Shown: positions 47,504 through 64,000 of the stretch, piece by piece
How the letters are laid out: every line of letters begins with the position of its first letter
Position numbering within the stretch: position 1 is the stretch's first letter
Assembly (NCBI GenBank): GCA_963819815.1
Contig: CAWFXL010000001.1
Coordinates: forward strand, 160,001-224,000
Origin: an uncultured bacterium
GTDB taxonomy: Bacteria > Babelota > Babeliae > Babelales > Babelaceae
DNA: 64,000 nucleotides
Direction: 5' to 3'
Notes under the pieces: generated by a model
What the model saw: only the letters and a program-made list of their open reading frames with translations
Told to the model about the DNA's origin: nothing
The model's database searches: none
Made by a program: the position numbers and the translations under genes

Positions 47504-48967
47504 TTAGACATATTCTCTGAATAAATCATCAAGCGTTACTACTCCAGAGATGAGGTCTTCTGAATAGATGGTCTTTTTAAGGCCACTGGCAGAAATCATT
47601 GCAAGATAGAGCGTTTTTCGTGTTTTTGTTTGTTTTGCGAATACTGCGCATTTTTTTTGTAGTACTTGGGCATATTCCTTATCTATTGCAAAAGCCTTTT
47701 CAGTATATTTTATCTCACAGAGCGTTATTGATCGATCCTCTCTATCAAATAATAAATCAATTTGTGCTCCTTGCTCAGGAGAGCCCTTTTTTGGCACGAA
47801 GCGCCATTGGGATGCACCGGCCATTGTGAGATTTACCGCTTGTCTAATCAAAGGGACATGCTTATTGCAAATTGATTCAAAAGCACATCCTGCCCAGCTA
47901 TGCCATGCTGGAGAGTTTTGAACCTTCGTCCAATGTCCTTTCTCTTCCCCCCGTTCTATCATTTCTTTTTTTGGCTCTATCCACTTAAAGTAGAAGAGGC
48001 TATATTCGTCTGACATCTTATAGAAGATCCCTTTCTTTTTGCGACCAAAAGAGGTGAATCGTTGAATGAATCCTGTTTGCTCGAGCACTTCAAGGTGAGA
48101 CTTTAACCAGCCACCTGACTCTTGGACAGTCACCTGATCAAAAAGCTCTTCCTGGCCGATTCCATAACAATGCTGAGCTATAATTCTTGCCAATTCAGCG
48201 TGAATACTATCTTGGCCAAACAGCGTGGCATAGAGGAGCGAAAACTCCTTCAACAGAAAACTATCCTTTTTGAAAGCAAGATACTCAATGTTCTGCATAG
48301 CCGATAATCCAGCCTTTATTTGATCCAAATAAAACGGAATACCACCGATAACCATATAGAGATGGACAATATCATTATTAGCTAGCTTTACTTTCTTATG
48401 TTTCAAATACTCTTTTGTCTGATGCAAGTCGAATGGCTTTAGGTGGATCACCCGAGTAGCACGGTTATAGAGCCCCCCGATATTGTGAATGATATTTTTT
48501 AAAATCCAGTTCGATGCTGAACCGCAAATAATCAACTTAATTCTTCGGTCCATAGACCAATGGCGATTCCAAAAGTAATCGAGCATTTGAAGTAATTGAG
48601 ATTTTCTCGTAACCATCCAAGGAAATTCATCAAAGAACAAGACAATTTTCTTTTTCTGCGATAATTCGATCGTATTAGTGAGCAGATTAAATGTTTCTCT
48701 CCAATCCTTTTTAACACTGAGCTCAGGATGCCCAAAGGCACGAGCGATAGAGTCAGTAAATTGTGCAATTTGTTGCTCTTGAGTCCCGTCCTTTATGCCT
48801 GTTACGTACAAAAAGATGCTATTCGTTTTTTTTGAAAAGGTGTTCCTCACGAGAAATGTTTTTCCAACTCTTCGTCTGCCATAAAGGGCAATAAACTCAG
48901 GGTTGTCTGAATTGTAGGCTTCTTCAAGTATTTCTTTCTCTTCTTTTCTTCCAATAATCTTAAACAT
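47504..48967 (-). CDS. Archaeal-type/STAND-like ATPase with winged-HTH and C-terminal PD-(D/E)XK nuclease domain
   Basis: 'IIGR..E', Walker A 'GRRRVGKT', Walker B 'FFDEFPW', 'CGS', 'GGIPFYL', 'FE...QIDLL...EIKY'. Confidence 0.9.
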   Translation of the reverse strand: MFKIIGRKEEKEILEEAYNSDNPEFIALYGRRRVGKTFLVRNTFSKKTNSIFLYVTGIKDGTQEQQIAQFTDSIARAFGHPELSVKKDWRETFNLLTNTIELSQKKKIVLFFDEFPWMVTRKSQLLQMLDYFWNRHWSMDRRIKLIICGSASNWILKNIIHNIGGLYNRATRVIHLKPFDLHQTKEYLKHKKVKLANNDIVHLYMVIGGIPFYLDQIKAGLSAMQNIEYLAFKKDSFLLKEFSLLYATLFGQDSIHAELARIIAQHCYGIGQEELFDQVTVQESGGWLKSHLEVLEQTGFIQRFTSFGRKKKGIFYKMSDEYSLFYFKWIEPKKEMIERGEEKGHWTKVQNSPAWHSWAGCAFESICNKHVPLIRQAVNLTMAGASQWRFVPKKGSPEQGAQIDLLFDREDRSITLCEIKYTEKAFAIDKEYAQVLQKKCAVFAKQTKTRKTLYLAMISASGLKKTIYSEDLISGVVTLDDLFREYV

Positions 48968-49064: not shown

Positions 49065-49298
49065 TTATGCCGCGAAGTATAATCTACTATATTCCGCGGT
49101 ATAAAGCGAGGATTTTGATTATACCGCGGAATATAATTTTTTTTCCGACTCGAAATCTTATGCTTTGTTTGGTCGATTAGATAGTGATTTATTAAGACTC
49201 AAATTTATACCGCGAAATATAGATTTTTATATTCCGCGGTATAAATCAGGAATTTTGATTATACCGCGACTTATAATTTTTTATATACCGCGGTATAA
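49065..49298. repeat. Array of seven 17-bp TTATACCGCGGAATATA-like arms forming 40-bp inverted-repeat units
   Basis: Units at 49065-49104, 49119 (left arm only), 49205-49244, 49259-49298; 54-bp period; blocks offset by 140 bp. Confidence 0.95.
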
Positions 49299-49481: not shown

Positions 49482-50354
49482 ATGATGAATGTGATGGTAG
49501 CGCTCCTATGCTCTTTACTATGGGCAGGAGTGACTATTGGAAGTAAAATGCTTTCGGGAGCTCTTCCTTTTTTTGCCTTTGCTTTTCTGCGTTATTCATT
49601 GGCTGCTTTATGCTTACTCCCCATACTACTTATGCGGAAAGATAAGGAAGAGCTGAAAGTACGCTATCTTCCCACTCTTATGTTTTTAGGGTTTACGCTT
49701 GTGTTCCTGTTTAATGCATTATTCTTTAATGCTCTATATTATAGTTCAGCAACATCGGTAGCTCTCATAGGTGCTACTAATCCTATTTTGACTATGCTGG
49801 TATCTGCTGTAGTGTTTAGACATATTCCAAATAGGTACCAGCTTTTAGCGTTTATGCTTTCTTTTGCGGGAGCGGCCTTGGTAATTACCGAAGGAAAAAT
49901 GGGAGTTGCTGTGTTAATGGGAAGTGTTGGAGATTTTCTTATGCTTCTAGGGGTGCTTTGCCAGATACTCTATACTATGGCATTAAATAGGGTGAGTGTT
50001 CACTTTTCGCCGCTATTCCTATCATTTGCTACAATAGTAAGTGGTGTTCTATTTGTGTTTCCCTTTATAATAAGCAAAGAATTTGTTCACGTTGTAACGC
50101 ATCTTACGGTAGGACAATGGGGGATCTTTGCTTTCATTAGCTGCCTTGGAACAGCATTGGCCATCTATCTCTACTCCTATGCTATCAAGCATATGGGCCC
50201 TGCGAGGACTAGCTTAATCGTTTTTAGTTCGATGCCCGTCTTTGTATTCTTGCTTGCATTCCTGATATTGGGAGAGAGCATTTCAGTGTGGCAGCTACTT
50301 GGGGGCATTCTTGTTGTATCTTCATTAGTGATTGGTTTGCGGCATACCCGATAA
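49482..50354 (+). CDS. DMT/EamA family transporter
   Basis: About 10 TM; 'FAFLRY', 'ATNPILT', 'LAFLILGE'. Confidence 0.92.
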   Translation: MMNVMVALLCSLLWAGVTIGSKMLSGALPFFAFAFLRYSLAALCLLPILLMRKDKEELKVRYLPTLMFLGFTLVFLFNALFFNALYYSSATSVALIGATNPILTMLVSAVVFRHIPNRYQLLAFMLSFAGAALVITEGKMGVAVLMGSVGDFLMLLGVLCQILYTMALNRVSVHFSPLFLSFATIVSGVLFVFPFIISKEFVHVVTHLTVGQWGIFAFISCLGTALAIYLYSYAIKHMGPARTSLIVFSSMPVFVFLLAFLILGESISVWQLLGGILVVSSLVIGLRHTR

Positions 50355-50552
50355 TTCGTCAGATAGAGTTTCAATAAATGCACTAATGTTTCTTAAAGTC
50401 TCTACGTAGAATACGCCCATGCCGCATTTTACATCATGGAAGCTAAACTAATTATGCAACCATACTTATGAGTACATAACTCCTTGCCGCTTTTCTGAGA
50501 AACTATAAGATTAAGAAAAAATACGTACGATCTCATTTGTTCAGGAGCAATT

Positions 50553-51425
50553 ATGATGAATGTGATTATAGCACTTCTATGTTCCTTACTTTCGGCGGGA
50601 GTGACGATTGGCGGCAAAATGTTTACGGTAGCTCTTCCGGCATTTGCTTTTGCCTTCTTACGATATGGATTAGCTTCTTTTTTCCTATTGCCCCTTTTCA
50701 TTATAAATAAAGAGAAAGAAGCTGTTAAATTACACGATCTTCCGGTCTTCATGTTTTTAGGGTTTACCCTTGTATTCCTGTTTAATGCACTATTTTTTAA
50801 CGCTTTATATTATAGTTCAGCAACCTCGGTAACGCTTATAGGTGCTACCAATCCGATTTTGACTATGCTCGTCTCAGCCGTGGTTTTTAGACAGGTTCCT
50901 AATAAATATCAAGCGTTGGCATTTCTGTTATCTTTTGTAGGGGCGGTCCTCGTAATTACTGAAGGAGAAATGGCCTTAGAAAAGTTAGGCGGAAATATTG
51001 GAGAATTGCTTATGCTTTTGGCAGTTCTTTGCCAGATAACGTATGGCATGGTATTGAAAAAGGTAAGTGCACATTTTTCTCCTCTAACTCTTTCATTTGC
51101 TACATTGACAACGGGTATACTTTGCGTATTGCCATTTGTTGCCAACAGGGAATTTGTCTCTATCGTAACGAATCTTACCCTTTGGCAATGGGGTATGTTC
51201 GTCTGCATTAGTGGTCTTGGAACGGCCTTAGACATATATCTATACTCACTTGCGATAAAACGTATGGGCCCAGCACAGACGAGCTTAATTATATTTAGTT
51301 CGATGCCTATCTTCGTGTTTTTGCTTGCATTCCTGATATTAGGAGAGGGCATTTCAGCGTGGCAGCTGCTCGGGGGTATCCTTGTTGTATCTTCATTAGT
51401 GGTCGGGTTACGTCATACCCGGTAA
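50553..51425 (+). CDS. DMT/EamA family transporter, tandem paralog
   Basis: Same length (290 aa) and colinear with the previous gene. Confidence 0.92.
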   Translation: MMNVIIALLCSLLSAGVTIGGKMFTVALPAFAFAFLRYGLASFFLLPLFIINKEKEAVKLHDLPVFMFLGFTLVFLFNALFFNALYYSSATSVTLIGATNPILTMLVSAVVFRQVPNKYQALAFLLSFVGAVLVITEGEMALEKLGGNIGELLMLLAVLCQITYGMVLKKVSAHFSPLTLSFATLTTGILCVLPFVANREFVSIVTNLTLWQWGMFVCISGLGTALDIYLYSLAIKRMGPAQTSLIIFSSMPIFVFLLAFLILGEGISAWQLLGGILVVSSLVVGLRHTR

Positions 51426-51430
51426 CTCTC

Positions 51431-52155
51431 TTATACAGGTACGACAAATACCGTGTTGCTTTGTAAGGTACAGCTACAATATTTGTTGAAGATATAGGCC
51501 TTTAGAGGGTTTGCCATTCCTTGAGGGAAAGGAAATGTTATAGTGAACACGCCCGTGTGCTCTGTTTGAGGATCACAATCACCTAAAATATTAATGTCAG
51601 CCCTGAACGTTGTGGAGCTTTTCTTTGCAGAAAAGGTCTTGGTAAAAGGAGGTGCTGACACCGTATTTCTGATCTCATCTTCAACGGTAGGTACAATTGA
51701 AAATTCTACGGGACCGGGAACTTCGTTTGGTGAAACAGCTAACGTGATGCATCCCAGACCATTTCCAAGAGGAAGTGAATCAATATTCATGCTGGCCGAT
51801 TCGACTGCAGATTCAGTAAAAACAATCGTAGTGGTGATTGAACTGGTTGTGGAGTCGGTAACAACGATATTGAGCTCCGTTGCGTATTCTGCAGCAGCCT
51901 ACTTCCAGTAAAGTCTGCAATTTGCGTAGTTTGAGAGGCAATAACGGTTCCATTTGTCTCAAGTAACTGATACGTATATGACCCATTAGACGAAGGTGTG
52001 CCACCTGATGCAGTTACGGATATATTTAGGGTTGGGTTGGCTCCGCATTCCCCTTGAGGGTTGAACGTTATATTTGAGATAAATAATGGTTGTGGGCCAA
52101 CCTGGGCAGTTAAGCTGATAGGTAAGGCGATTAGGGTGAGTAAGAGTTTTTTCAT
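51431..52155 (-). CDS. Secreted beta-rich protein with SprB-like motif, split by a frameshift near 51900
   Basis: Signal peptide and 'ISVTASGGTP...YTYQL'; the frame of ORF 51431-51790 stays open upstream (AAAEYATELNIVVTDS...) to about 51898. Confidence 0.6.
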
Positions 52156-52334
52156 GAGTCTTCCTTTTGGATAATGTGGATTGTGTACGTGCTAACACGT
52201 TTGCTTCTAAGGTAGATTAACATATCGATTCTTACATATGCAATGATTTTGATCTTGATGTGCGCTTCCTAACTACTTACTAGATGTTTGCAAGTGGGCT
52301 TCTGAAGAAATAGGGCGCCTATGCATCCTGTATC

Positions 52335-52414
52335 CTATTTGTGTTTCCCTCATTATAATCAAGGAATTTGTTCACGTTGTAACGCATCTTACGGTAGCAC
52401 AATGGAGGATTTTT
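52335..52414 (+). pseudogene. About 80-bp fragment copied from the first EamA gene (50049-50129)
   Basis: Shared 'ctatttgtgtttccct' and 'gaatttgttcacgttgtaacgcatcttacggtag'. Confidence 0.9.
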
Positions 52415-52546
52415 AGTTGGCTTAGGCCATACATGGTAACTTTCTTAAAAGGGAAACGTTGAGGAATACGTTTCTGTAATTCTACGTATATCACTCAGAG
52501 CGTTCGCTTCTGGTGCTCAGCTCAAAATTTCTCTGCCTCGATCAGC

Positions 52547-54436: not shown

Positions 54437-55629
54437 ATGAACAGGCACCGGCTGCTAGGCAGTATACTCTTTTTATTGAGTGTTTTCTCCCCCTCTCAAG
54501 AGGTGTATTCCTATGTGTACGGGTATACGCGATTATACAGACCAGATACCCAAACAACACTTGACCTAGTCTATGACTACCACAAAGCTTCCGACTATCT
54601 CTCCCATGAAGAAATGAATTCCTTCTTATGTGATGATATTAAACAGGGGCTGTATTCTTCGGAGAAGACCTTTGTTGAGTCTCTTGAGCATCTTAATCGA
54701 ACAAATCCCCATGATACAACGGTGATCTGGGAAAATGCACCGAACTTTGTTCCAGCTGAGGTTCATCTCCTTACCTATCCGCAGCGGCTTGTCACAAATC
54801 GCCTACGCCAATTGAGCTTTATTCCCGCAGATACCTGGCGATCTGACTATCCAGGATGTCTCATGTCAGTGTTGCGCGGTGGTAGCTAGAAAATCGAGTT
54901 GATCGTCGTGCTATTATCCAAAACCACGGATCTCAGGTATGGGATGGGTACAAAGCATTAATGGGTACTACGCTTCGCAAACTGAAAACTACCTATGGGG
55001 CACACCGTGAAAGGGTGGCCTACTCGAGACTTGGCGATGATCTGTATAAAGAACTTTTCTTTGCAAAGCCACCTTATTCTGAACTCGCTGATTTAGAAAT
55101 GATATCCCAAATCTTACAATCTCCTCATCGCCATATTGTCCTCTTTGCTGGAGGACTCCACTGTCATAACATTGTGGACTTTCTTTTCTCTGCAGCCTCC
55201 TTTGAGGTGATTCATTCTGTAGTTGATCGGGATTGGGTAGAGATTGATCCCCATGAGCTTAAGCGGATTGCCCACAGTCATGGCCGAGAAACCCGAACTC
55301 CCCAAAGACCATATCGTGCCCCTAACCCAGGACCTAGTACAAGACCTGTACGGCCGGGCAAGACAGCCAAGCCAGCACCGCTTAAGACCAAGAAAAAGCC
55401 ACCTACAGAGATAGCTGAGAAGCAGAAGAAGCAGCTGCTCGTAGGAGGAGCGGTAGCTCTTGGAGCTCTTATGTTATCTGCGTACCGTGAAAGTAAGGAC
55501 ACTGGAGTAGCTATGTCGGGTATAGCACAGCGCAAACTGCTGAACACCTTGAAATATGGCGCAATACCAGGTCTGCTCTACTACGCATTGATTAAGAATC
55601 AAAAATATCAGAGTGCACTGACTGCTTAA
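54437..55629 (+). CDS. Secreted/membrane hypothetical protein, copy 1 (frameshift near 54887)
   Basis: ORFs 54437-54889 and 54961-55629 are colinear with 55668-56801; one T missing relative to paralog (AGCTAGA vs AGCTTAGA). Confidence 0.8.
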
Positions 55630-55667
55630 ATATGGATCTAGAGGAAAATTTGAAAGGGAGGTTGCTC

Positions 55668-56801
55668 GTGAACAGGATAGGTAAAATACTCCTCTTATTG
55701 CACGTTTTCTATCTCCCACAAGTATATGGCTATGTGTGTGGGTATACGCGGTTATATAGTCCTGAAACACAAACGACGCTGGATTTTGTGTATGATGTTC
55801 ATAAAGATTCGAAGAAACTATCTCATGATCAAATGCATAACCTCTCCTGTGATGATCTTTTGCAGAAACTTTATCCTTCTGAGAAGGCCCTCGTTGAGTC
55901 CCTTGAGCATCTTAATCGAACAAATCCCCATGATACAACGGTGATCTGGGAATATGCACCAAACTTTATTCCTGCTGAGGTTCATCTCCTTGCCCATCCA
56001 GAGCGGCTTGTCACGAATCGCCTACGCAAAGTGAGCTTTATTCCCGGAGATACCTGGCGATCTGACTATCCAGGATGTCTCATGTCAGTGTTGCATGGAG
56101 GTAGCTTAGAGCATCGAGTGGATCGCCGTGCCATTATCAAGAACTACGGATCTTGCGTGTGGGAGGGATACAAGGAATTAATGGAGACTGCGCTTCGCAA
56201 CCTGAAAACTTCCTATGGGGCACATCGCGAAAAAATAGCAGATTCAAGATTTGGCGATGATCTCTATTTCGAACTATTCTTTGGAGGGACTCCCTACGTT
56301 GTACTTGCTGATTTAGAAATGATAGCCAACATATTGCAATCGCCTCATCATCATATTGTCCTCTATGCTGGGGGGCTCCACTGTTATGAGGTTGTGAAGT
56401 TCCTTTTATCTACGGCCTCTTTTGAGATGATACATACCGTAGTAAATGAGGATAGGTCAGAGATTAATTCTCAAGAGCTTAAGCGGATCAGAAGACCAGG
56501 CAACTCTCGTGCGCTCAATCCAACGTCTGGCACGAGACCTGTGCAGCCTGGCAAGTCAGCCAAGCCGTCAGTAGAGATAGCTGCTTCTGAAAGTAAGAAG
56601 AAGCGCCTGTTCCTAGGAGGGGCAATAGCTCTTGGAGCTCTTATGCTATCTGTATACTGTGAAAGCCAGTAGACGTGAGTAGCTCTGTCGAATATAGCAC
56701 AGCGCAAACTGGTGAACACCTTGAAATATGGTGCAATACCAGCAGGTTTGCTCTATTTTTTATGGAAGAGATCTCAAGATCAGACAACAAAGTCTGCTTG
56801 A
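55668..56801 (+). CDS. Tandem paralog, copy 2, with two in-frame stops at 56670-56678
   Basis: GTG start after GGGAGG; homology to copy 1 continues past TAG 56670 and TGA 56676. Confidence 0.75.
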
Positions 56802-58282: not shown

Positions 58283-59488
58283 CTATTTTTTTTGATAACG
58301 GCGTAGGGGAAGAAGGGTGATAATGCTGAGAAAGCTTATAATTCCCGCTATGCAAAATGCAGCTTTGGCGCCTATCATACGCCAGATGATTCCTAGTATA
58401 ATACTCGAGAGCAACGCAGCAAGACTATCAATAGTATTGATAATGCCATAACCTGTTCCACGTACATTCTCAGGTAGAACATCCGCAGCAAGAGATTTCT
58501 GTAGACTTACGTAGGTTCCTGCGCTAAATCCTGAAAGGAAGAAGATGCAGAGGGCTGAAATGAGTGAGGTACTCTGCCAGGCAAGAAGAAAACACATAAT
58601 CCCAAAAAATCCAAAGCCTCCTATCCCTAAAGGAATAAGGCGTCCAATCTTATCGCTGATAGATCCCATTGCATAACTTGAAAATGTCTGAATAATATTG
58701 CGGAAAATATACATAAGAGCAACGGTACTTAATGCTACTGCCGCAGAAGCCCCTGGAGAGAGTACTTCTTGCATGCGCAGTACTAAGAGACTTTTATTAA
58801 AATTACCTAATCCAAACATCAGAAAAACCCCCATAAGATAATAGAAAGCCCTGGGTAAGGAATTCTTAAAGATAAACAAGAACGAAAATGGTTCATTGGT
58901 GACAGTATGCGGAACATCTTTGACCAGCATATATATAATAAGACAGGCAAGAACTCCTGGAATGAGCGTTATGAGAAAGAGCTTATGCGGTGACCAGTCA
59001 GCAAGAAAATAGACAATGAGTGGACCAAGTATCGATCCAAGAGTATCAAAGGCCTGTCTAAATCCAAAAGCTCTTCCGTAATAGGCTTGAGGAGTTGAAT
59101 CAGCAATGATAGCACTTCGGGGAGCACTGATGATACCTCTTCCAATCCAGGCTCCTGTCATGAGGAGAAATACGGTAACCCAATGGTTAGCAAAAGCAAG
59201 GAGACCTACGAGTGATCCTGCAAGAAAATAGCCAAAGACAATCATAGGTTTACGGTTCGTAAGCTGGTCACTCAATTTTCCAGCATAGAGACCCGAGAGA
59301 CTTGCTACGGCTGTAGAGGTTCCTCCAATAAGGGCCACATAAGGAGGTGCGGCATCTTTTCCGAGCAACTGAGAAATCAATAGAGGAAGTATGAGTGGTA
59401 CAACTTCATGACTTGCGTCACTCATAGTGCTCGCCAAGCTAAATCCGACGACGTTCTTAGTAAGCCATTGTGGATAAGAAATTTTCAT
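58283..59488 (-). CDS. MFS transporter
   Basis: About 12 TM; 'GKLSDQL..RKP', 'GRAFGFRQAFDTLG', 'GSISDKIGR'; start MKISY after AAAGGAG. Confidence 0.93.
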   Translation of the reverse strand: MKISYPQWLTKNVVGFSLASTMSDASHEVVPLILPLLISQLLGKDAAPPYVALIGGTSTAVASLSGLYAGKLSDQLTNRKPMIVFGYFLAGSLVGLLAFANHWVTVFLLMTGAWIGRGIISAPRSAIIADSTPQAYYGRAFGFRQAFDTLGSILGPLIVYFLADWSPHKLFLITLIPGVLACLIIYMLVKDVPHTVTNEPFSFLFIFKNSLPRAFYYLMGVFLMFGLGNFNKSLLVLRMQEVLSPGASAAVALSTVALMYIFRNIIQTFSSYAMGSISDKIGRLIPLGIGGFGFFGIMCFLLAWQSTSLISALCIFFLSGFSAGTYVSLQKSLAADVLPENVRGTGYGIINTIDSLAALLSSIILGIIWRMIGAKAAFCIAGIISFLSIITLLPLRRYQKK

Positions 59489-59543
59489 GGGATCTCCTTT
59501 TGAAGGAGTATACACAGGTCTTTTTCAAAAAATATAGATTTTG
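59480..59543 (+). repeat. 64-bp direct repeat, copy 1
   Basis: 63/64 identical to 61324-61387. Confidence 0.97.
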
Positions 59544-59692: not shown

Positions 59693-61135
59693 TTAGTTGT
59701 CGGGTGAGAAGATATCTGAAAAATTAATAATTTTTGCAAAAAAACCATTTGCTATAACTTCTTCATCGACGCCATTCACGTGAACTAAAACGGGCCTCAT
59801 TGAAAACCCTTTGGGATGAATCAGATGGGCCATTTTTTTTTGCATCTCTTTTATCACAGCTTTTCCAACGGGGTTTTTGGAAAACTTAAACTCACAAAGC
59901 CATAGCCCCCCGAAATGTGTCTGAATAAGATAATCAATCTGGCATCCAGGGAGCTTATTTGTCTTTCGTTGGAAAAAGGGATTGTCAGATACTATTTCAT
60001 CATGGCTGATTCCTAAGCAGTCCTTAATATATTGGCGATTTCTTAAAACGAGGTTGTCAAATTGCAGACCCATAAGAGAATCCCATCCGGGAAGCAATGA
60101 GAGTGATTTGGCAGTAAATGTATCAGTTTCTATTTTGGGTAGGTTTTTTTCAATATATTTCAAATAAAATCTTACGTAGTTATCGCTTAAGCGAAAATGA
60201 CTTAACCGTGAAGCTTCTCCTGAAGCAATATGCCAAGTATAGTCACGACTGACAAAGCCAGACTTTATAAGATCTTCAAGATATTCGCCTACAGATCCGC
60301 CTTGGTTTAACTCGAGTATTTTAGTTATTTCCTTAAGTTCACGAGCACCGTCTGCAAGGGTCTCAATAATTTTCTTATAGGTTTCAGTGCGCCGGGAAAA
60401 GATGTCATTAAAGATATCTTTAAACTCATGAACCAAAAGACCACGTTTAGTGAAACAGAGTTTGCGAATCGTTTGCTCTGCGGGTAAAGAAGGATTCATT
60501 TCTTCAAGATACCGAGGGACTCCACCGGTTACTGAGAGTACTTTTAGTTTTTCATAGGCCGAAATGAAATCCCCATTCTGAGCCCAAAACTGGTTACACT
60601 CTTTGAGTGGGAGCTCTTCAAGGGTGAGCCGATAAGATATTCGGCCAACGAAACCGGTGCTTGATAAGATGTTTTTATCGATCCACGTAGAAACTGATCC
60701 ACACAGGACAAGAATGAGGTTAGGGTTTTTCGCGAAATAGATGTCCCAGGCGTTCTTGAGTTTCCCTAAAAATTCAGGATCTTTTGAACCCATCCATGAA
60801 ATCTCATCAAATAGAACAATAATCCTACCGGTTTGAATGTCCCTATGCAACAAAATGAAGAGTTTGCTCCAATCGTCAGCAAAAACCTCAGGGGTTCCTG
60901 TTTGAGCGCTTAATTGACGAGAAAACTCATCTAATTGTGACTGCATCGTTGTGGCAGCGACAGGTGGGCTACCGGAAAAGTGGTAGAATGTATGATTCTT
61001 AGCAAATTCTTCAACGAGACGACTTTTGCCGATTCGTCGACGTCCCTGAATAACGACGAGACTTGCAGTTTTTTTTTCAAATAATTCCGAAAGCTCAGCT
61101 AGTTCACGCTTTCTACCAATAAATGGGCGGGCCAT
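59693..61135 (-). CDS. Archaeal-type/STAND-like ATPase with winged-HTH and C-terminal PD-(D/E)XK nuclease domain
   Basis: 'FIGR..E', 'GRRRIGKS', 'LFDEISW', 'CGS', 'GGVPRYL', 'QIDYL...EFKF'; start MARPF after GGAG. Confidence 0.9.
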   Translation of the reverse strand: MARPFIGRKRELAELSELFEKKTASLVVIQGRRRIGKSRLVEEFAKNHTFYHFSGSPPVAATTMQSQLDEFSRQLSAQTGTPEVFADDWSKLFILLHRDIQTGRIIVLFDEISWMGSKDPEFLGKLKNAWDIYFAKNPNLILVLCGSVSTWIDKNILSSTGFVGRISYRLTLEELPLKECNQFWAQNGDFISAYEKLKVLSVTGGVPRYLEEMNPSLPAEQTIRKLCFTKRGLLVHEFKDIFNDIFSRRTETYKKIIETLADGARELKEITKILELNQGGSVGEYLEDLIKSGFVSRDYTWHIASGEASRLSHFRLSDNYVRFYLKYIEKNLPKIETDTFTAKSLSLLPGWDSLMGLQFDNLVLRNRQYIKDCLGISHDEIVSDNPFFQRKTNKLPGCQIDYLIQTHFGGLWLCEFKFSKNPVGKAVIKEMQKKMAHLIHPKGFSMRPVLVHVNGVDEEVIANGFFAKIINFSDIFSPDN

Positions 61136-61167
61136 AGGGTACTCCAATATCAAAAACTTTCTAAAGA

Positions 61168-61262
61168 TCACTAATCATAAATGGAAAAAGCCAATTATGA
61201 TTGGTGAAACTCTGCCCCAAGTTTACCACTCATAATTGGAAAAAGTCGATTATGATTAGTGA
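61168..61262. repeat. Two tandem 40-bp inverted-repeat units (55-bp period)
   Basis: TCACTAATCATAAATGG-AAAAAG-CCAATTATGATTGGTGA and TTACCACTCATAATTGG-AAAAAG-TCGATTATGATTAGTGA. Confidence 0.93.
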
Positions 61263-61323
61263 AACTTTGAGAGCGCTGAATTGTCCTACCTTTTCCATGC
61301 CCCCCGATTGCATGTAGATATGT

Positions 61324-61387
61324 AATTTTCATGGGATCTCCTTTTGAAGGAGTATACATAGGTCTTTTTCAAAAAATATAGATTTTG
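61324..61387 (+). repeat. 64-bp direct repeat, copy 2
   Basis: 63/64 identical to 59480-59543. Confidence 0.97.
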
Positions 61388-62074: not shown

Positions 62075-62312
62075 CATGCTCGAAGGGTGCTCCATGATGT
62101 GTGGTTGTCATGCCTCGTCAGTTATTCTCTTACTAATTCGGCGGCAAGTCGCAGAAATTATCTTCTAAAGATACTAATGAGTTACGACTTTGGAATGGAA
62201 TAATCAATACGCTCACAACTTGAATTTGCGAGCTGAAGTAAAATGATCTACGATACTATCTAAGACTTTCTTGCCTGAGTAACACAATAATACATAATGA
62301 GAGAGATTGCAC

Positions 62313-64000
62313 ATGGTTATTCGTTATCTTACCTACGCTTGTTTTTTGACGTCTTTTTATTACCTGCAGGGTGCAGCACTTTTACGCACACCTCTGAGCC
62401 CCTGTAAGCCTGGAATTCTTCAGGCTGTCAAGAACGATGTACATGCACATGTTGAAGAAGTCACTCAGCGGTGTCTTGAAGCAAGTGACCTTCATGCAGC
62501 AGCTGTTGCCGGTGACATACCAAAGACGAGAGATCTAGCTTTATCACATGAAAAAACTCCGCCACGTGTTCTAAGCCCTTTAATGTGTGCACTTGCTCAA
62601 AGACATACCGAAGTTGCTCGACTTCTTTTGAAAATGAGAAGTTTTGAAGTTGCTCAACAGGATCAGTGGGGCCTAACAGCGCTTTTCTATGCACTTAATG
62701 GGAGCACAGATCTTATTGATGAACTTCTTGATCAAGGTGCACATGCGCATCTGAGAGGTGTCCAACTGCTCGACGTTCTCTTCCTTGCGGCTCTCTTTGA
62801 GCAGCAAGATGTCATCGAGAAACTTCGCGAGGTAAGCGCTCAACCAAACATCGAACCTTATGGTAGTAACTTTTTTACATTCGTAAAAAGCGATCTGTTT
62901 AAAGCACTATTTGCTGATGCTTCACAATTCGATACGTTCGATGTCTTCAATTTTGTCGCCCTTACCGGTAAATCAAGGGAGTTTGATCCATCTGGTTCTG
63001 GATGCACCTATACCTGTGAAAAGTTACGGTTCGCTCTTGAAAAGCATCTAAAAAAAACACAGCCAAATAATCTGCCATTGCTTCGAGCGATTCTTGCAAA
63101 TAATCCACAAAGGGTTGCATCACTGATCGAGCGAGGTGCTTTGCCGGTAGCCCATTATCCAGATACCATAAGTCCTATTGACGTTGCCGCTCTAGTTGGT
63201 TCTGCGGAGGTTATAGATAGCCTTGTTACGACAGGCAAGAAAAAGAATAATTTTCACTTTCTTCCGTATCGCTTAGGTGGCGCTGCTCACTTTCTTAGAG
63301 GTCTAAACGGTGAACCTATGCTTACCGAACTTAATCAACTTCACCTTGCTGCTCTTGCATCAAATTGGCCTGCTCTCAGGCAATTGAGTACCTATGGGTT
63401 TACTAGTAATCGAGGTGAGCTAACTCCTCTTCACCTTGCGAGCCAATGGGCAACTCCTGAAACGGTTGCTACGCTTCTTGAGCTCGGGGCGAATGTAAGC
63501 AGTAGGGATGAATCAGGCCTCCTGCCACTTCATTTCGCCATAGATAACATCGATGTGCGTGCTGTAACTGCACTGTTAATCAGGGGAGGCGCATCACTCA
63601 GAGAATTTTTAGACAAGTACTCAACGGGCGCATCTATTACAACAACTCGGCGCAGTTCATCATTAAGAAGCAGTGAATTTATTCGAGGCATTCTCGATGC
63701 CCTTACTGACCTTGACGAAAATAACGGTGCACTATTGATCACTACTCTCCAAGCAGGGGGCATTCCTCAAGTTGCGATGCTTTTGAAAGCGGGTGCTCGA
63801 GCAGATACGCATGATGATCGAGGAAGAACAGTTATTCATCACACGGTAGAAGCATGCTGTAAAAAATCTCTGCGCCCTGAAGATACTTCTGCACTTATTA
63901 AGTTGCTTACTACTCATGGAGCAGACATTGATGCACAAGATGCTCATAATAAAACGGCCCTCAATCGTGCCATTGATCGCCGGTGTATGATGGTTTGGGT
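62313..64000 (+). CDS. Secreted ankyrin-repeat protein, runs off the window end (absent from ORF track)
   Basis: Hand translation from ATG 62313: MVIRYLTYACFL..., 'GLTALFYA', 'LTPLHLASQW', 'GANVSSRDESGLLPLHFA'. Confidence 0.88.
   Translation, partial: MVIRYLTYACFLTSFYYLQGAALLRTPLSPCKPGILQAVKNDVHAHVEEVTQRCLEASDLHAAAVAGDIPKTRDLALSHEKTPPRVLSPLMCALAQRHTEVARLLLKMRSFEVAQQDQWGLTALFYALNGSTDLIDELLDQGAHAHLRGVQLLDVLFLAALFEQQDVIEKLREVSAQPNIEPYGSNFFTFVKSDLFKALFADASQFDTFDVFNFVALTGKSREFDPSGSGCTYTCEKLRFALEKHLKKTQPNNLPLLRAILANNPQRVASLIERGALPVAHYPDTISPIDVAALVGSAEVIDSLVTTGKKKNNFHFLPYRLGGAAHFLRGLNGEPMLTELNQLHLAALASNWPALRQLSTYGFTSNRGELTPLHLASQWATPETVATLLELGANVSSRDESGLLPLHFAIDNIDVRAVTALLIRGGASLREFLDKYSTGASITTTRRSSSLRSSEFIRGILDALTDLDENNGALLITTLQAGGIPQVAMLLKAGARADTHDDRGRTVIHHTVEACCKKSLRPEDTSALIKLLTTHGADIDAQDAHNKTALNRAIDRRCMMVW

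Follow-up and report, generated by a model that had tools for sequence, protein, structure and literature searches.

Restriction-modification controller (C) proteins are small helix-turn-helix proteins of the Xre type that are separate from the nuclease and have their C-boxes beside the R-M pair. They bind their own paired palindromic operators cooperatively, with the two operators lying within about 35 bp, and both the operator and the recognition helix have diverged into groups that do not cross-react. The locus described here lies in a 64-kb stretch of DNA (the window) and resembles this arrangement in that a nuclease-linked gene, ATPase 2, is preceded by paired palindromes. Unlike the C proteins, the putative binder is a 480-aa fusion of an ATPase, a winged helix and a nuclease, and the palindromic units are placed 54-55 bp apart. 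ATPase 2 is not a member of the C proteins: the Pfam search returned no Xre-type domain for it, and no methylase gene lies beside it.

The protein itself corresponds to PDC-S27, a COG1672-type 'archaeal ATPase' with the Pfam domains ATPase_2 and DUF234, which both ATPase 2 and a second protein of the window, ATPase 1, match over their full length. PDC-S27 is a single-gene phage defence candidate of PADLOC, in which an ATPase is fused to a PD-(D/E)XK domain (PMC12988326). The same paper counts 3503 of these systems among 7747 genomes of archaea and 4562 among 40,000 of bacteria, and describes validation as pending for most defence candidates. One representative was assayed in E. coli against T7, T5 and T4, and it is not among the four protecting systems named in the available part of that report (bioRxiv 10.1101/2024.09.26.614923). 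DUF234 has been placed in the PD-(D/E)XK superfamily (PMC3424549). The accessible literature on DUF234 and ATPase_2 consists of domain classifications (PMC3424549, PMC1913061) and census papers only, and in the accessible texts on DUF234, PF03008, PF01637, COG1672, PDC-S27, SSO1545 and PAB2304 we found no description of upstream arrays.

A sequence search of the PDB gave no matches, and the structural relatives of ATPase 2 were found by fold search only. The best Foldseek matches of the predicted model in the PDB were 2qen and 2fna, followed by Orc1/Cdc6, ORC subunits, Apaf-1, plant NLR ATPases and MalT. The first two correspond to PAB2304 (2qen) and SSO1545 (2fna), structural-genomics 'archaeal AAA+ ATPases' (E 2e-11 and 2e-10; TM ~0.65 on the target), which differ from ATPase 2 in their size of ~350 aa, in having no nuclease domain and in sharing only 15-17% identity with it. 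Like Orc1/Cdc6 and its ORB elements, the locus combines an ATPase-helical-winged helix fold (Foldseek 1w5t, 2qby) with long sites of 17-20 bp, arranged as inverted copies beside the protein's own gene. Unlike Orc1/Cdc6, the protein has an added C-terminal nuclease, there are many copies per genome, and there is no sign of an unwinding element. The Orc1/Cdc6 model TIGR02928 does not match ATPase 2, so that the likeness is in fold only, and a replication function is very unlikely.

MalT and the mycobacterial IniR are STAND-type regulators that oligomerise in an ATP-driven manner on arrays of sites; MalT (8bob) is among the fold matches, and the ATPase domain of IniR has been likened to SSO1545 (PMC5760070). 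Both differ from ATPase 2 in having LuxR-type C-terminal DNA-binding domains and sensor repeats, in activating other operons and in containing no nuclease. The NB-ARC domain model gave 17.4 bits for ATPase 1, against a cut-off of 23.5, and no match for ATPase 2.

Taking these comparisons together with the sequence analysis below, the two palindromes are probably a private operator of ATPase 2, to which the protein would bind to repress its own gene.

ATPase 2 and the array ahead of it

The preliminary description had reported two units of 17+6+17 bp with a 55-bp period, located 33-127 bp upstream of ATPase 2. We confirmed this arrangement both in the sequence and by repeat search. The features of the gene and of the array (array 2) are as follows.

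59693..61135, minus strand: ATPase 2 gene, 480 aa; P-loop ATPase (Pfam ATPase_2), helical domain, winged helix and PD-(D/E)XK nuclease
59885..59935, minus strand: nuclease core motif, D401 to E415-x-K417
60188..60352, minus strand: winged helix domain, residues 262-316, from the AlphaFold model and weak MCM_C and HTH_5 matches
60263-60298, minus strand: recognition helix, residues 280-291, within the winged helix
61022..61045, minus strand: Walker A motif GRRRIGKS, residues 31-38
61142..61145, minus strand: GGAG ribosome-binding site, nine bases ahead of the ATG, as read from the sequence
61168..61207, no strand assigned: unit A, gene-proximal, with left arm TCACTAATCATAAATGG (61168-61184) and right arm CCAATTATGATTGGTGA (61191-61207)
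61185-61190: spacer of unit A, AAAAAG, equal to CTTTTT in gene orientation
61208..61222, no strand assigned: outer spacer of 15 nt between units A and B
61223..61262, no strand assigned: unit B, gene-distal, with left arm TTACCACTCATAATTGG (61223-61239) and right arm TCGATTATGATTAGTGA (61246-61262)
61240-61245: spacer of unit B, AAAAAG, identical to the spacer of unit A

The arms of unit A are complementary at 15/17 positions, and the repeat search returned them as an inverted repeat of 17 nt with 88% complementarity and a 6-nt gap (61168-61184/61191-61207). Unit B starts 55 bp after the start of unit A, which sets the 55-bp period, and a direct repeat of 51 nt with 82% identity was found at the same 55-bp spacing (61164-61214/61219-61269). 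The sequence of the 15-nt outer spacer is not conserved between the units. The arm core of ATPase 2 is TCACYAATCATAA. A 13-mer, TCACTAATCATAA, occurs with 0, 1, 3 and 0 mismatches at 61168(+), 61195(-), 61223(+) and 61250(-), respectively, and no further site with at most one mismatch was found in the 64-kb window. When up to three mismatches were allowed, the whole window contained 37 sites against 31 expected; this count is not significant, while the clustering of the sites is.

The distance of 33-127 bp follows from the start of ATPase 2 at the ATG at 61135. The N-terminus encoded from this position, MARPFIGRK, lines up with the N-termini of all homologs. A longer version starting at a GTG at 61171 is unlikely, since that codon falls inside the array.

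ATPase 2 matches Pfam ATPase_2 (PF01637) with 60.8 bits and ATPase 1 does so with 67.9 bits, both above the cut-off of 33.2. Residues G31, R32-R34, G36 and K37 of the Walker A motif are invariant in 89/89 aligned homologs. The PADLOC model of PDC-S27, PDLC04984, covers residues 4-476 of ATPase 2 with positions 3-473 of its 474 (E 4.3e-91), and it matches ATPase 1 over the full length with E 8.5e-163. DUF234 (PF03008) was found by Pfam in ATPase 1 (33.3 bits; cut-off 22.5). ATPase 2 shows no DUF234 match at E<=0.01, yet its whole C-terminal domain aligns with that of ATPase 1. Of the 89 homologs, all have E415, and the conservation of D401 and K417 is 90% or higher. ATPase 2 carries the motif of the PD-(D/E)XK superfamily, D ... 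(D/E)-x-K on a conserved core, and is a predicted nuclease.

The AlphaFold model of ATPase 2, obtained from the 89 homologs (pLDDT 95.2, pTM 0.91), shows a P-loop ATPase followed by a helical domain, a winged helix and a C-terminal alpha/beta domain that contains D401, E415 and K417. Its winged helix comprises the helices 267-274 and 280-291 and a beta wing at 295-316. Weak Pfam matches to winged helix models cover residues 250-298, and the exposed positions of this domain are highly variable in the homolog alignment. The peptides QESGGWLKSHL and NQGGSVGEYL, which had been singled out earlier as differing recognition regions, are present in the two proteins, one in each, and, in the predicted structure, begin the third helix of the winged helix (280-291). 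For a helix that reads DNA, the recognition helix of ATPase 2, GSVGEYLEDLIK, has a rather acidic composition, which counts against the protein acting as the binder of its own operator.

Arrays of the other paralogs in the source genome

ATPase 1 is 25% identical to ATPase 2 over the whole length and is preceded by an array as well.

47504..48967, minus strand: ATPase 1 gene, 487 aa, a paralog with Pfam ATPase_2 and DUF234 matches
49066..49298, no strand assigned: array 1 (TTATACCGCGG type), four 17+6+17 units on TTATACCGCGR, upstream of ATPase 1

The units of array 1 start at 49066, 49119, 49205 and 49259 with a spacing of 53-54 bp, and the right arm of the second unit has decayed. The two arrays of the window therefore share their 17+6+17 build and differ in sequence, as the preliminary description had it when it called array 2 a second array of the same geometry.

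The source genome (1.64 Mb in 2 contigs, 88% complete) encodes 11 intact paralogs, together with one N-terminal and one C-terminal gene fragment. Walker A, Walker B and the D/E/K nuclease residues are retained in 11/11 paralogs, with the GRRRxGK[ST] and DE motifs invariant in all of them and D401, E415 and K417 all conserved. We applied a strict test for arrays of alternating arms, which called for a 10-mer with <=1 mismatch in at least 3 copies on both strands, spaced by 50-57 bp on the same strand and by 18-37 bp on opposite strands. Such an array was found at 9/11 paralogs. At the paralog L008, two 17+6+17 palindromes stand at a distance of 123 bp, and no recognisable array was seen upstream of L003. 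The arm cores of the paralogs other than ATPase 2 are listed here.

L002: TTGACRTGAAATTG
L004: CTTGAGCAG
L006: ACTTATCGCCAA
L007: AATTTGGCGCATTA
L008: CTAGGACAATTATA
L009: CTGTTCCGCC
L010 (ATPase 1): TTATACCGCGR
L011: TTCCGCTGG

When searched against the 1.64-Mb genome, the core motifs of the paralogs were found to cluster solely in their own arrays. The cores of L008, L009 and L010 have 3, 3 and 6 copies in their own arrays, respectively, and zero elsewhere in the genome, and those of the other paralogs show scattered single near-matches at most outside their own array. The exception is the 9-mer of L004, CTTGAGCAG, with 51 exact matches elsewhere, which is too short for specificity. Locus specificity of this kind is one of the properties by which a self-operator is recognised, and the fact that each paralog has an arm sequence of its own suggests that there is no cross-regulation between the copies.

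A scan of the whole 1.64-Mb genome for the geometry, blind to genes, returned 14 clusters, of which 7 adjoin ATPase paralogs, 4 are orphan arrays and 3 are others. The orphan arrays have the alternating-arm build of ~54 bp and no adjacent ATPase gene; they are listed below with the two paralog fragments.

C1:1418394-1418520: orphan array
C1:1479896-1479990: orphan array
C1:1487396-1487560: orphan array
C1:1580690-1580800: orphan array
C1:1039635-1039868, minus strand: N-terminal paralog fragment
C1:1467395-1467544, minus strand: C-terminal paralog fragment

Two of the orphan arrays have arm cores that resemble those of array 2 (AACCAATAATTGG) and array 1 (TATAGCGCGGGAT). These arrays may have been left behind by sister cassettes that were lost, or may be secondary sites. 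The existence of four of them indicates that an array can be maintained where no such gene adjoins it, which counts against an operator that serves its own gene. The N-terminal fragment contains stop codons and still has one palindromic unit upstream.

Several other repeated elements were observed. At C1:285983-286140, four short palindromes on TATTTCAA/TTGAAATA are placed ~45-55 bp apart, ~1.1 kb upstream of a weak match to a different, AAA-type ATPase (C1:287253-287849). Within the window, two tandem ORFs of 290 aa (49482-50354 and 50553-51425) share 77% DNA identity, with a third partial copy near 52344, and a two-gene block is duplicated at 54437-55629 and 55632-56672 with 78-83% identity; overall, tandem paralog genes span 49482-52425 and 54437-56742. 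A long open frame at 62307-63998 runs off the end of the window and is ankyrin-repeat-like by eye ('LH.A' and 'G.ADIDAQD' repeats).

Distribution of the layout and its relation to protein clade

Within the phylum, the family was detected in 16/121 genomes at E<=1e-20. These usually contain 1-2 copies, against 12 matches in the source genome, which points to a lineage-specific expansion. A scan with one genome per species found 591 relatives, and the best 80 of the 591 were kept; these belong to the Legionellales, Chlamydiae, Coxiella, Rickettsiales, Bdellovibrionota, Planctomycetes, Verrucomicrobia, Kiritimatiellae and Bacteroidota. Sufficient upstream DNA was available for 75 loci among these best 80, and at 56/75 of them the 250 bp ahead of the start contain a 10-mer in at least three copies on both strands. 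The same test gave 11/75 and 14/75 in two coding control windows.

The claim of a conserved geometry held well beyond the window. Over 95 loci of many phyla, the spacing of the repeats peaks sharply at 54-55 bp: direct-repeat shifts of 54 (92), 55 (53) and 53 (23) were the ones observed around this peak, compared to 0-5 in coding controls, with a harmonic at 108 (18). By the strict array test, 60/102 loci passed and 42/102 failed. Ten distant plasmid-borne homologs (10 of 55 records; 22-30% identity; three haloarchaeal) mostly have palindromes or repeats immediately ahead of the start codon as well. By eye, these repeats have mostly other spacings than 54 bp, so that the 54-bp layout is not universal in the wider family. 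It is a feature of the bacterial clades around ATPase 1 and ATPase 2, not of the whole superfamily.

The patchiness of the family within its phylum, and the fact that the closest relatives, among the best 80 of 591, are intracellular or predatory bacteria of other phyla, would also fit a selfish one-gene cassette. The arrays would then be sites for its movement or maintenance, recognised or cleaved by its own nuclease in homing or site-specific recombination, and regulation would be secondary. ATPase 2 and its array are indeed bracketed by a direct repeat that contains the start of a neighbouring gene.

58283-59489, minus strand: transporter gene, neighbour of ATPase 2
59469..59543, no strand assigned: 75-bp direct repeat, copy 1, comprising the first 7 codons of the transporter and 54 bp upstream
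61313..61387, no strand assigned: 75-bp direct repeat, copy 2, 95% identical to copy 1

The two copies enclose 1769 bp with ATPase 2 and the array, and the repeat looks like the scar of an insertion with duplication. Flanking direct repeats, counted at >=28 bp, are present at 9 other loci too, the nuclease residues are intact, and the gene fragments and orphan arrays point to turnover. However, such repeats are not enriched at these loci (10/93, compared to 19/300 random positions of the source genome), which makes mobility by this mechanism a lead rather than a finding, and the other ten paralogs in the source genome have no flanking repeats. Furthermore, the arrays are located only upstream of the gene and not on both flanks, and the interleaving of arms and promoter boxes seen in two clades fits regulation. 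A DNA search for the empty site in two genomes of the same genus, which are too diverged, gave no match. On this balance, we regard a selfish cassette as quite unlikely to account for the arrays, and an operator private to each gene as the better description.

If the arrays had the diversified specificity proposed in the preliminary description, their motifs should be related to the protein clade. This relation was found: both the arm cores and the period follow the protein clade, and the motif of each paralog is private in the source genome. In the protein tree, sister proteins have common arm cores.

L046/L053: GCGTAAGT
L051/L058: ACGTAGAAT
L045/L048: GGTACTGYAAA
L050/L056/L069/L087: GCACSAAAT
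L044/L055/L062/L076: TCACYAAA
L004-like clade: TTGAGCA
Seven orthologs of one genus: AGCCAAGTAG

For a quantitative comparison, arms were aligned across loci by their core motifs, the assignment to inner and outer dyad classes by spacer length being ambiguous (e.g. L114 compared to L001), and a pair was taken to share a core when >=10 of 16 core positions matched. Cores are shared by 21/21 protein pairs with >=80% identity, by 25% of the 12 pairs with 60-80% identity and by 3-7% of those with <60%. Under label permutation, protein and motif similarity correlate with rho 0.164 (2/2000 shuffles reach the observed value) and, after six of the seven same-genus orthologs were removed, with rho 0.139 (10/2000 shuffles), figures that are indicative only because related rows are not independent. 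The overall correlation (rho 0.16) is weak and is carried by close relatives, which also have a common ancestry of their intergenic DNA. The period separates one clade clearly: L006, L101, L109 and L110 have 50-51 bp in 10/10 spacings, and the 107 spacings of the other 60 loci lie at 52-56 bp (47 of them at 54 and 38 at 55).

Closely related arrays allowed us to follow individual changes. In the seven orthologs of one genus, the ~95-bp array is conserved and the DNA on both of its flanks is unalignable. In L026, an ortholog from another genome of the phylum, three arms carry AGCCAAATAG in place of AGCCAAGTAG, with an identical G-to-A change. A concerted change in three arms and on both strands is what a co-evolving binder would predict. 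Similarly, in the first palindrome of L022 both arms are changed in a complementary way, G-to-C and C-to-G. Since L021 and L026 have the same recognition helix, the changed base may be read by another element or be tolerated. The alignment of recognition helices yielded no clear rule for a residue-to-base code, and near-identical SEYL helix cores occur with different motifs, which suggests that specificity may lie elsewhere, for example in the wing. As a whole, the comparisons support the reading first put forward for these loci, in which a conserved geometry and a diversified specificity would give orthogonal protein-array pairs.

The diversity of the arms also bears on whether another host factor binds the arrays, or whether they are origin- or centromere-like sites, analogous to ORB elements or iterons. 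Iterons are repeats next to an initiator gene, just as the arrays lie beside an initiator-like gene, and the protein fold resembles that of Orc1/Cdc6, which binds inverted ORB elements beside its own gene. Nevertheless, each of ~60 loci, and each paralog within the source genome, has a different arm sequence, which excludes a common host factor, and each locus encodes only one candidate binder. Eleven sites in a 1.6-Mb bacterial chromosome would be implausible as origins, and the Orc1/Cdc6 model TIGR02928 reached only 15.7 bits, against a cut-off of 181.3, and this with ATPase 1 alone. Both ideas are very improbable.

Promoter overlap and the proposed operator

In two clades, the arms are placed on a predicted promoter. 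The seven same-genus orthologs have TTGCAA-18-TAAAAT, with one arm in the spacer and one just downstream, at the predicted transcription start. The L004-like clade has TTGACA-17-TATAAT, with TTGAGCA arms both around it and within it. This interleaving of arms with putative -35/-10 boxes is the classic arrangement for repression by occlusion. At ATPase 2, a consensus scan identified no convincing sigma-70 promoter inside array 2 (6 sites found, 4.6 expected), so that a promoter overlap at this gene rests on analogy with the other clades. By eye only, CATAAT and TATGAT inside the arms of array 2 are possible -10 boxes.

The position of the arms relative to the promoter also speaks to whether the palindromes act as RNA, namely as hairpins of the 5' untranslated region that would affect stability or translation or be bound by a protein, rather than as operators in double-stranded DNA. 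Each 17+6+17 unit could be folded into a hairpin, and many arrays end merely 10-50 nt before the start codon. In the two clades above, on the other hand, conserved arms precede the -35 box, which would leave them untranscribed. G:T mismatches between arms are slightly more frequent than A:C mismatches (192 and 144, respectively); this excess is equal in both dyad classes and so looks compositional, and transversions, by which a hairpin would be disrupted, make up most of the mismatches (481). In addition, one sequence is common to all arms of an array, including arms that do not pair within a unit. The Rfam search returned nothing credible, its sole match having an E of 0.84, far under the cut-off. 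An RNA role of the palindromes is thus very improbable.

For an operator in DNA, the following arrangement can be proposed. The winged helix, with helix 280-291 and the beta wing, would read each 17-bp arm, possibly aided by the ATPase domain in the manner of Orc1/Cdc6, and each palindromic unit would hold two protomers, head to head. The spacing of 54-55 bp between units, which would be set by the architecture of the protein, could allow the bound pairs to be linked by their ORC/STAND-like ATPase domains into a higher-order complex. This complex would cover the protein's own promoter and, by negative autoregulation, keep the expression of a nuclease that could be dangerous at a low set point. 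We infer ATPase 2 as the binder, the stoichiometry and the direction of regulation, and any role in phage defence would likewise be putative.

It is also conceivable, though unlikely, that the arrays are more than operators and serve as platforms for an ATP-dependent higher-order complex of the ATPase-nuclease, assembled on the DNA of its own promoter. Occupancy of the home site would then gate both the protein level and the licensing of the nuclease, and the system would be an immune sensor anchored on self-DNA. If this were true, diversification of the sites would be driven by cross-talk between paralogs or by phage decoys, and the source genome would offer a natural collection of orthogonal switches in its 11 pairs.

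PDC-S27 is among the commonest candidate defence genes of archaea and bacteria. As a private operator, a site with a fixed geometry of 54-55 bp would be the first concrete handle on this family, and it predicts the target of the winged helix. Heterologous tests of PDC-S27 that do not include the native upstream region may mis-express the gene. Finally, the eleven pairs in one genome provide a panel on which the encoding of specificity can be studied, and orthogonal repressor-operator parts might possibly be drawn from them.
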